Part shown: positions 5,492 through 6,321 of the stretch, in pieces
Position numbering within the stretch: position 1 is the first letter of the stretch
Layout: each line of letters starts with the position of its first letter
IMG/VR virus record: IMGVR_UViG_2706794666_000010
Direction: 5' to 3' (one strand)
Length of the DNA: 6,387 bases
DNA from: a virus
Lineage: Duplodnaviria > Heunggongvirae > Uroviricota > Caudoviricetes
Translations under genes and position numbers: made by a program
Notes under the pieces: model-generated
What the model was told of the DNA's origin: nothing
The model's database searches: none
Seen by the model: only the letters and a program-made list of their open reading frames with translations

Positions 5492-5575
5492 TTATCCCCA
5501 GCGGCAAATCGAATACACCACCAGCGCCACCGCCATCGCAATTCCTACCGTTGTTAATGCTTCAGGCCAGGTCAT
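5492..5575 (-). CDS. 27-codon hydrophobic micro-ORF ([27 protein letters not shown]), not in the supplied ORF track
   Basis: ATG overlaps the stop of the 114-aa gene (ATGA); GGAGG 10 nt upstream; single predicted transmembrane-like segment. Coding status unproven. Confidence 0.3.
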
Positions 5576-5916
5576 CGTAAAATATCCTCCACGCTTATCA
5601 GTCCGTTCCGCTCCAGATAACTCATCGCCTTATCCGGTAATTTGCAGTCTGGCTTCGCTTTCCTCAGTTGCCAGGTTAACTGCTTTACCAGCATGGTTAA
5701 CTCATCGACCAGACGCTGATATCCCACTGGTTTGTATTCATGCAATTTACCGGCTGGCTCTGCTGCCAGCGATACCAGTGCGATTTCCAGAACAGCAATA
5801 TCCATCTTATATGTGCGGATGATGTCATGGTCGATTGTGCCCGGTATGCACAGTCTCTGTGCTTCAATAGTCTCCTCTGCGTGAGCTATTAACTGCTCTC
5901 TGGTAAAAGTCGTCAT
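5572..5916 (-). CDS. Hypothetical 114-aa phage protein; N-terminal domain paralogous to the upstream 55-aa ORF
   Basis: ORF starts with an ATGA overlap to the upstream gene. Shares MTT(F/I)T(R/K)E(Q/R)(L/I) and IAL(V/A)SL(A/E)AEP motifs with the 55-aa ORF. Confidence 0.7.
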
Positions 5917-6080
5917 GCCGTAGCCCCTTCTTGATATTTTTCAAACCAGAACACAACCGGCTCTGCTTCCAGCGATGCCAGCGCAATCCGTGCCAGTTCC
6001 ATTTGTTCACCACGGGTAAGCCCGTTTTCAAGCGGGTTTTTAATGAACAATTCAATACGTTCTTTGGTAATAGTGGTCAT
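5913..6080 (-). CDS. Hypothetical 55-aa protein ([55 protein letters not shown]), not in the supplied ORF track
   Basis: AGGAG SD 8 nt upstream of the ATG, which lies 10 nt after the stop of the 76-aa gene; stop overlaps the next start (ATGA); paralogous to the N-terminus of the 114-aa protein. Confidence 0.5.
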
Positions 6081-6090
6081 GTGTTACTCC

Positions 6091-6321
6091 TTAACCCGCA
6101 GTGCTTTCAACTGATGAGGGGAACAAAATCTTTTCATCAAACCCTGCATTCATATCATGAACAGCAACACACCAATCCATCGACGAACGATTATCAAGAG
6201 CCTCCATGATTTCATCCATGCGGCGTAGGTCATACAGGTAAATGCTTTTATCGCCAATGGTGTAAAAGCCAATTTTTTTCGGTGATGGATGAGGTGTACT
6301 GGCAATAGCGGACACTACCAT
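6091..6321 (-). CDS. Hypothetical 76-aa protein; 5' end and upstream region lie in the right inverted-repeat arm
   Basis: ORF from the track, first gene of a tightly packed run; no recognisable motif. Confidence 0.55.
   Translation of the reverse strand: MVVSAIASTPHPSPKKIGFYTIGDKSIYLYDLRRMDEIMEALDNRSSMDWCVAVHDMNAGFDEKILFPSSVESTAG

Follow-up and report, generated by a model that had tools for sequence, protein, structure and literature searches.

In this study, we analysed a 6,387-nucleotide (nt) stretch of DNA from a virus of the Caudoviricetes (IMG/VR record IMGVR_UViG_2706794666_000010; hereafter the window), and concluded from comparative evidence that a 27-codon open reading frame (ORF) at 5492..5575, here called the micro-ORF, is most likely a real gene for a small membrane peptide, to which we assign a probability of about 0.85. 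The micro-ORF closes a run of four ORFs that lies upstream of a hok/sok-type toxin locus; all features of the run and of hok are on the minus strand, and coordinates are window positions. An earlier reading of this DNA, made from its letters and ORF list (the sequence-only reading), had presented the run, with products of 76, 55, 114 and 27 amino acids (aa), as an undescribed small module. The ORFs, their spacings and their ATGA overlaps were all found where that reading had placed them, and the micro-ORF is indeed undescribed; the run did not hold as a unit, and the 55-aa and 114-aa proteins belong to a familiar mosaic family, the Eaa/DUF551-associated early proteins. Three of the four ORFs are intact genes, whereas the apparent 76-aa gene is a truncated remnant joined to the insertion sequence IS600. 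One false gene, the IS600 chimera, is thereby removed, and the proposed four-gene module proves not to be a unit.

The case for the micro-ORF begins with its pattern of substitution. A degenerate DNA-pattern scan, in which intact ORF ends were required, recovered 58 distinct DNA sequences encoding 32 peptides. In codons 7-24, which lie outside the constraint of the pattern, the ratio of nonsynonymous to synonymous polymorphism (pN/pS) was 0.46, and the entropy by codon position was 9.1/5.0/16.9. The majority of the divergent pairs had synonymous divergence (dS) of 0.5 to >1 and nonsynonymous divergence (dN) of 0.1-0.35; pairwise dN/dS was 0.09-0.5 in most of them (up to 0.8). When Fisher tests were restricted to the core codons of three divergent pairs sharing no sequence, synonymous changes were in excess in each of them (p 0.002, 0.0075 and 0.041). 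The sequence-only reading had set down beforehand that its claim would fall if synonymous changes were not favoured among homologous copies; across diverged copies they were in excess, so the 27-codon ORF withstood this check. In-frame purifying selection was found together with conservation of the start, the Shine-Dalgarno (SD) sequence, the stop and the length, as in a genuine protein-coding gene.

The boundaries of the micro-ORF behave as those of a gene that moves as a discrete unit. In blastn searches against phage genomes, many matches began at the micro-ORF ATG (query 355/356), behind unrelated upstream genes, and ended at its stop (query 439-441) or continued into the hok leader. In the window copy, the SD sequence GGAGGA (5585..5590) lies 9 nt before the ATG and inside the last codons (..VEDILR and the stop) of the 114-aa gene (5572..5916), whose TGA overlaps the ATG as ATGA at 5575-5572. 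The same overlap of the upstream TGA with the micro-ORF ATG (ATGA or ATGATGA) was present in every copy read, including those obtained without pre-selection by the pattern. Within the pattern-selected set, nearly all distinct contexts have AGGAGGT or GGAGGA at a distance of 6-10 nt before the ATG, regardless of which gene precedes it, and at least four kinds of upstream gene end precede the micro-ORF. Because the SD sequence is embedded in the last codons of the upstream genes, their unrelated products share the ending ..EV(N/R)Q, ..ED(I/V)LR or something similar. On the other side, the next gene starts 4 nt past the micro-ORF stop in 18 distinct downstream contexts and overlaps the stop in 7, so that the micro-ORF exactly fills an otherwise unexplained 84-nt gap. 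In a less biased sample, retrieved through the neighbouring 114-aa protein, 71 of 78 loci had an intact micro-ORF. The stop/start overlap and the SD sequence within the upstream gene are the signals expected for translational coupling, which is accordingly predicted from sequence for this gene.

Several observations weigh against this conclusion. The requirement for intact ends in the scan biases dN/dS when it is calculated over the whole ORF, although the core-only figures are free of that bias. The antisense frame that shares wobble positions with the micro-ORF has a similarly low pN/pS (0.36), so the substitution pattern alone leaves the strand unfixed; the strand is assigned on the ATG, the SD sequence, the stop, the co-orientation with neighbouring genes, the module boundaries and the downstream packing. 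About 7 of the 78 loci carry frameshift, nonsense or stop-loss alleles, and the micro-ORF is also disrupted in phages vB_EcoS-689R5 and POCJ13; the gene is therefore maintained but dispensable, and is possibly costly in prophages. The peptide was not in the supplements of one ribosome-profiling study of enterohaemorrhagic E. coli (strain Sakai), in which the cultures were uninduced. Finally, IS600 separates the genes of the window from the phage early promoter, and the window's own copy of the micro-ORF may therefore be silent.

Two of the disrupted alleles are worth describing in their own right. In vB_EcoS-689R5 (our locus L084, 1856-1966), a 1-nt deletion after ATGAC has led to the annotation of a spurious 36-aa frame-shifted ORF, and the same deletion recurs in 3-4 IMG/VR loci. 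In Shigella phage POCJ13 (L167, 1501-1581), TGG is changed to TAG at codon 3 of the micro-ORF. We also considered whether the region acts as an RNA element. The micro-ORF RNA was less structured than its shuffles (z = +1.62) and had no conserved fold (consensus energy -2.4 kcal/mol), and this reading was rejected; an Rfam scan of 4900-6387 gave nothing over 5492-5620.

The micro-ORF is common in E. coli and its phages. Its 84 bases were found in 1634 of 5426 complete E. coli genomes (30%), at 3110 places in all, with up to 7 per genome and 163 on plasmids. It was also present in 92 phage records at a coverage of at least 80%, including 933W, VT2-Sakai, BP-4795, ArgO145 and the lytic phage Av-05, so that its carriers comprise Shiga toxin (Stx) phages, phage-plasmids and lytic Vequintavirinae. 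Among GTDB species representatives searched with a strict pattern, a genuine micro-ORF was found only in E. coli and Shigella. A perfect pattern match on a 431-bp contig of Xanthomonas pisi (NZ_JPLE01000323.1; L171) is probably E. coli phage contamination, and an 82-base pattern match in Curtobacterium was rejected, as it is unable to encode the micro-ORF. In E. coli K-12, where the check was limited to the CPS-53 region (whose yfdS encodes a DUF551 protein), there was no copy.

The genes around the micro-ORF differ from carrier to carrier. In VT2-Sakai and 933W it lies between the gene for the coiled-coil protein VT2-Sap77 and hok. In BP-4795 and PhiR12_1 it follows a DUF551 or Ea22-like gene of the exo-xis region and precedes DUF4222, xis and int, and in ArgO145 it follows a homologue of the 114-aa gene and precedes a convergent toxin-antitoxin pair. 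In a 97.7-kb phage-plasmid it is placed behind a hypothetical gene that itself follows a DUF551 gene, and in Av-05 (a lytic member of the Vequintavirinae) behind an Eaa-like gene; in both, the next gene begins 2 nt past the stop. The micro-ORF sits behind whichever Eaa-type or DUF551 gene comes last, whether in the pL (exo-xis) region, the nin region, phage-plasmids or lytic phages, and its consistent partner is a positional one, the last gene of an Eaa-type/DUF551 array. The sequence-only reading had placed the micro-ORF directly upstream of hok, which is true of this window; about one third of the distinct contexts have hok next door, and about two thirds have none downstream. The micro-ORF and hok do travel together in some phages, namely that of this window, 933W and VT2-Sakai. 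The Av-05 copy (NC_025830.1, 74410-74493; L165) differs from the window copy by a dS of ~1.2 and a dN of 0.11, and three other large lytic E. coli phages also carry a match. The occurrence of the Eaa-like gene and micro-ORF as a pair in Av-05, with this divergence, points to exchange between temperate and virulent phages.

Standard annotation misses the gene. The intact micro-ORF was uncalled in all eight records inspected, comprising three E. coli replicons annotated by the Prokaryotic Genome Annotation Pipeline (PGAP) and five phage records (including VT2-Sakai and BP-4795), and the exact peptide appears sporadically in GenBank as 'hypothetical' or 'prophage protein'. The peptide is in none of Pfam, NCBIfam, PHROGs and PADLOC. 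Its PHROG matches were weak (phrog_4612, 38566, 35838 and 22915; E-value 0.01-0.1) and differed among variants, and membership of these families was rejected. A HMMER search of 1.84 billion representative proteins, with the peptide plus 7 upstream codons as the query, recovered only 20 proteins, all of them close family members; neither a parent domain nor any more distant relative emerged. In the micro-ORF frame, several short partial calls bear the name 'DUF551 domain-containing protein, partial', which could mislead automated annotation. A relationship to DUF551 suggested by clustering at 90% identity was likewise rejected as a clustering or naming artefact, because the peptide is absent from the 121-aa and 185-aa DUF551 cluster mates. 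A literature search by peptide strings found no paper that contains it, and the titles and abstracts of papers mentioning DUF551 held nothing on the micro-ORF. The Ea22/exo-xis papers cited here do not mention it either, and the word 'transmembrane' occurs 0 times in one of them (PMC10834534).

The sequence-only reading was borne out in describing the product as a single hydrophobic helix missed by annotation: the mean Kyte-Doolittle hydrophobicity reaches 2.16 over 19 residues. W3, P4, A6, R25 and W26 were invariant across the 32 variants, an invariance that is partly imposed by the search pattern and that was also seen in pattern-free tblastn matches. Position 5 holds either E or D, and G27 hardly varies. 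Strong conservation also marks G11 (31/33), A15 (30/33), position 21 (Y or F), S22 and C24 (31/33), and the remaining core positions vary freely among hydrophobic residues. The peptide is thus predicted to be one transmembrane helix with a small-residue motif, G11xxxA15, and specific interfacial ends. As its sole basic residue, R25, is at the C-terminal end, the positive-inside rule suggests that its topology is probably N-out/C-in. It was also considered as a lipoprotein, a reading that was rejected, as there is no lipobox (Y-S-I precedes Cys24) and Cys24 is replaced by Phe in BP-4795-type variants.

The only recurrent Pfam signal of the peptide was DUF883_C (PF19029), the C-terminal glycine-zipper tail anchor of ElaB, YqjD and YgaM, at 13-14.5 bits (E-value 0.03-0.06). 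The layout of the motifs is similar (W/P-x-x-x-VG-x-A-x-AV...R); however, the scores are far under the gathering threshold (GA) of 27 bits, and the micro-peptide is a free-standing product with no larger protein in front of it. AcrZ, MgtS, MgrB, KdpF and CydX are small single-pass regulatory membrane proteins of enterobacteria that bind larger membrane proteins by helix packing. The micro-peptide has in common with them a length below 50 aa, one predicted transmembrane helix and a history of being missed by annotation. In contrast to them, it is phage-borne, is encoded within an early operon, appears to be translationally coupled and has no known partner, and there is no homology between them. 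Its novelty is that of a narrow-range family of small phage membrane peptides, which are themselves an already known kind of molecule.

Considering the above features, we tentatively propose a mode of action, which we hold as plausible and somewhat short of an even chance. The micro-ORF would be translated by termination-reinitiation coupling, through the ATGA overlap and the strong SD sequence embedded in the last codons of the upstream gene, so that the peptide would be made together with the early Eaa-type proteins. The product would insert in the inner membrane as a single helix, probably N-out/C-in, and would act via specific helix-helix contacts, either by self-association or by binding a host or phage membrane protein. 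Such contacts are suggested by the conservation of W3-P4-E5-A6, G11xxxA15, Y21-S22 and R25-W26-G27 while the other hydrophobic positions are free. Selection maintains the gene both in temperate phages and in the strictly lytic Vequintavirinae, and its role may therefore lie in the programme of infection or induction (host takeover or membrane modulation) and not in prophage maintenance or hok control.

The alternative that the neighbourhood most readily brings to mind is a membrane-damaging toxin of the type I kind (cf. Hok, TisB and DinQ), which would form a toxin-antitoxin, abortive-infection or defence module with its neighbours or with hok. Like Hok/Gef proteins (PF01848, RF01794), the micro-peptide is a small hydrophobic single-helix peptide found on lambdoid prophages, the two being adjacent here and in 933W and VT2-Sakai; hok adjoins in roughly one third of distinct contexts, the location is an accessory region, and the disruption of about 9% of prophage alleles could reflect a cost. 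However, the micro-peptide has no sequence similarity to Hok, is 27 aa against ~50 aa, and gave no HOK_GEF match at E≤1 in the same search in which hok scored 81.6 bits. No other toxin family was matched, and no Rfam match, conserved RNA fold, antisense RNA, folded leader, mok-type leader or anything else like type I control was found for the micro-ORF. Type I toxins are typically repressed tightly at translation, the reverse of the strong exposed SD sequence and the ATGA overlap with an upstream early gene that are seen here; hok is lacking from the majority of contexts, the gene is kept in lytic Vequintavirinae, and the conserved terminal motifs are specific beyond mere hydrophobicity. The sequence-only reading had also suggested toxin-antitoxin or defence cargo for the run as a whole. 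None of the four products, nor the intact 87-aa relative of the first, matched a PADLOC family (0 hits), Pfam and NCBIfam gave no defence or toxin-antitoxin family, and the run is not a conserved block. We therefore regard a toxin as quite unlikely, and the suggestion of such cargo was not supported.

A somewhat better, though still unlikely, alternative is that the peptide serves as a detachable membrane partner or anchor that brings the Eaa-type protein, or the hairpin of the shared N-module, to the inner membrane. Nearly all contexts have an Eaa-type or DUF551 gene upstream, with an ATGA overlap, rare natural frameshift fusions place the peptide as a C-terminal tail on the upstream protein (P0050, L085/L179 and L086), and there is the weak resemblance to the ElaB/YqjD tail anchor (E-value 0.03-0.06). 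Yet the C-terminal domains upstream are wholly different (DUF551, the KLPDKAM module, the VT2-Sap77 coiled coil and the Av-05 type), the 121-aa and 131-aa upstream types are entirely without the N-module, the fusions are sporadic mutations, and the DUF883_C score of 13-14.5 bits is far under the 27-bit threshold. Least probable of all is that the 84 bases are kept for a reason other than the peptide, as a recombination linker, an upstream element of the hok promoter or a stretch translated for its own sake (for example, preventing Rho-dependent polarity). In favour of this, recombination joints fall at the module boundaries, the recombinant P0070 demonstrates that conserved sequences of the region do serve as mosaic joints, the stop lies 8 nt from the putative -35 hexamer of hok, and the wobble-sharing antisense frame has a similar pN/pS. 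Nevertheless, variants approach saturation at synonymous sites (dS >1) and still keep the peptide, whereas a linker or a promoter would conserve bases; hok is missing downstream of most copies, RNA structure is absent, and length, start, SD sequence and stop are all conserved. A coupled membrane peptide acting by helix packing remains our preferred reading over these three.

The fusion carriers, L085/L179 (IMGVR_UViG_2861053794_000003), L086 and P0050, encode tail-anchored-looking proteins that arose from sporadic frameshifts or deletions. A programmed frameshift fusion to the upstream protein was considered and rejected, as no slippery heptamer was seen at the overlap and the fusions are rare and stem from different indels.

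Lysogenisation and Stx-prophage induction are reported to be affected by genes of the accessory exo-xis and nin regions (PMC3824215, PMC7093339). Since the micro-ORF lies in these regions, earlier deletion or complementation work on them may have unknowingly removed or carried it. It is conceivable, although on balance rather doubtful, that the 27-aa peptide is the first representative of a new family of membrane effectors of phages, that it has a specific host or phage membrane target and that it measurably changes the outcome of infection. If this were true, the outcomes affected could include superinfection exclusion, control of membrane potential, the timing of induction or lysis, and Stx-phage induction under oxidative stress, an effect already reported for other exo-xis genes, and the carriers of the family would be the major Shiga-toxin phages together with 30% of the complete E. 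coli genomes. We consider the finding of moderate interest, as the micro-ORF is prevalent in Stx phages and missing from standard annotation. Being only 27 codons long, clear in its motifs and available in numerous natural variants and natural knock-outs, it is also a cheap target well suited to small-protein work.

The two genes upstream of the micro-ORF were proposed by the sequence-only reading to share a duplicated domain, and this was confirmed. The 55-aa protein (5913..6080) and the 114-aa protein, whose genes overlap by ATGA at 5916-5913, are 33% identical (BLASTP, E-value 1e-5), and both match PHROG families 660, 60, 3323 and 5117. The 55-aa gene has an AAGGAG SD sequence 7 nt upstream, and its product is named a hypothetical protein by PGAP (WP_000207997). 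It is essentially an Eaa-type N-terminal module with a short tail, and matches PHROG 3323 (E-value 1e-19) as well as 60 and 660. With two substitutions, its residues 1-41 are the N-terminus of a 197-aa Salmonella 'Eaa protein' (P0129); residues 1-37 stand unaltered at the start of the 101-aa recombinant P0070, and residues 1-39 at the start of a 300-aa DUF551 protein. The 114-aa protein matches PHROG 660 (E-value 8e-43). A database search returned 238 relatives of it, all from Escherichia, Shigella or Salmonella and all hypothetical, named 'Eaa protein' or linked to DUF551.

The architecture of this family consists of an N-module, MTT(I/F)T(K/R)E...(I/V)AL(A/V)SL(E/A)AEP, a variable middle and one of several C-modules, which may be DUF551, ending in ...HWMPLPEPPQEVNQ, or a 42-aa module starting with ELTMLVKQL. 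The 114-aa protein is an N-module followed by the 42-aa ELTMLVKQL-type C-module, and its N-module recurs in the DUF551 protein P0105. The natural recombinant P0070 is joined exactly at the IALASL motif, and P0040 and P0041 are frameshift fusions of the 55-aa and 114-aa genes. The conserved (I/V)AL(A/V)SL(E/A)AEP end of the N-module appears to double as a recombination joint. AlphaFold2 modelled the 114-aa protein with a mean pLDDT (predicted local distance difference test) of 76, with the N-module as a helical hairpin (residues 6-51, pLDDT ~90) and the C-module as three helices. Foldseek searches of this fold against the PDB returned only generic helical hairpins (best E-value 0.73), and the best hit of a PDB profile search was an unrelated coiled coil (E-value 0.013). 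Neither the 55-aa nor the 114-aa protein matched any Pfam family at E≤1, including Ead_Ea22 and DUF551, and neither matched NCBIfam or PADLOC.

The 55-aa and 114-aa proteins are very probably true paralogs within the mosaic Eaa/DUF551-associated early-gene family, and nothing sets their genes apart from the other accessory genes of the ea/exo-xis type, a group that is poorly understood. Mosaicism has been described for the Ea22 group (PMC10834534), whose function is only loosely described as 'pro-lysogenic' (PMC10834534, PMC7093339). The proteins described here have modules, mosaic domain-swapping and an accessory early setting in common with lambda Ea22, P22 EaA and the DUF551 proteins of the exo-xis region (PMC10834534, PMC7093339). 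They differ in having no Pfam match to Ead_Ea22 or DUF551 and in sharing only the N- or C-module with DUF551 carriers, and the array of the window is in the nin-equivalent (pR) region.

At the far end of the run, the apparent 76-aa ORF (6321..6091), separated from the 55-aa ORF by a 10-nt spacer (6081-6090), is almost certainly a chimera, in which the remnant of an 87-aa phage gene truncated by IS600 survives. Positions 6290..6387 are occupied by the right end of IS600 (IS3 family): they are 100% identical to the IS600 end, as found when the 100-nt query 6288-6387 was compared with annotated IS600 copies on 790 plasmids. The plasmid copies matched carry the annotation 'IS3-like element IS600 family transposase'. 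This distal segment of ~100 nt is multicopy, occurring in thousands of records and at up to 43 places per genome. The terminal inverted repeat of IS600 starts with TGAGGT at 6290 on the plus strand. The 3' end of the transposase orfB, which is co-directional with the phage genes, ends in ...SPAAFREKYHQMAA; the stop codon falls at about 6335-6333, some tens of bases into IS600. The homology of the window to intact E. coli prophage loci ends at ~6288-6289. Intact relatives have at this place an 87-aa gene (WP_000224216/WP_000224227) that matches phrog_1714 with 172 bits over 1-87. Only its last 65 codons and the stop are kept in the window (6091..6289), fused in frame to IS600 sequence, which supplies the ATG and the first ~10 codons (about 10.7) of the 76-aa ORF; the frame is open to the window edge. 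Accordingly, PHROG 1714 matches residues 10-76 of the ORF at profile positions 21-87. A plain insertion thus created the false ORF. No complete E. coli genome of the collection spans the junction between IS600 and phage sequence. An identical junction recurs in several IMG/VR contigs (L008, L021, L030, L031, L042, L043, L063, L066 and L247), and the insertion is therefore fixed in a lineage, which it marks and for which Shigella is a candidate.

The sequence-only reading had placed the run in a nin-equivalent region, and this held: in intact relatives, the region lies between the replication genes and DUF968/RusA/Q. We lean towards the view that a lambdoid (Qin/Stx-phage-like) prophage carried here an 'ea'-type array of accessory early genes, of which the stretch is the distal end, cut from the upstream part by IS600. 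A conserved four-gene module was not found, since the first ORF is truncated by IS600, the Eaa modules recombine freely and the micro-ORF travels independently. The whole block with hok is present in 241 of 5426 complete E. coli genomes, against 1634 of 5426 for the micro-ORF alone.

The hok/sok-type type I toxin locus (5125..5450) is a neighbour of the run and not a member of it. Both its protein and its RNA matched their families above curated thresholds: the hok coding sequence (5280..5125) scored 81.6 bits with Pfam HOK_GEF (PF01848; GA 22), and the mRNA leader with the Sok target (5450..5275) scored 112.4 bits with Rfam RF01794 over its full length (GA 59). PGAP names the hok of relatives hokD. 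As the Rfam leader match starts there, the 5' end of the hok mRNA is placed at about 5450. A tentative hok promoter (5451..5484) would consist of a -35 hexamer TTGCGG (5484-5479), a 16-nt spacer and a -10 hexamer TAGAAT (5462-5457), beginning 8 nt past the micro-ORF stop; a consensus scan did not report it, and its -35 hexamer matches at 3/6 positions only. A mok-like 70-aa in-frame extension (5125-5337, minus strand, start at 5337) reads MNGKSRLASYVPKGKEKQA-MKQQK..., and its first residues differ between similar loci (MLNTCR.., MSHKCR.. and MLVTYR..) while the hok part is constant. At 5035-5116 (minus strand), a sub-threshold Rfam match to the Gifsy-1 small RNA isrK (25.7 bits; GA 50) overlaps a terminator-like hairpin (5056-5039); the 3' end of the hok mRNA probably accounts for it.

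Further downstream of hok, only the first 30 residues of a 94-aa ORF (4623-4907, minus strand) match phrog_340, and its counterpart in a homologous phage record is labelled 'toxin to Rem'. Two masked runs of N, of 264 and 266 bases at 280-543 and 3383-3648 of the window, break ORFs that include a DUF968-like gene.

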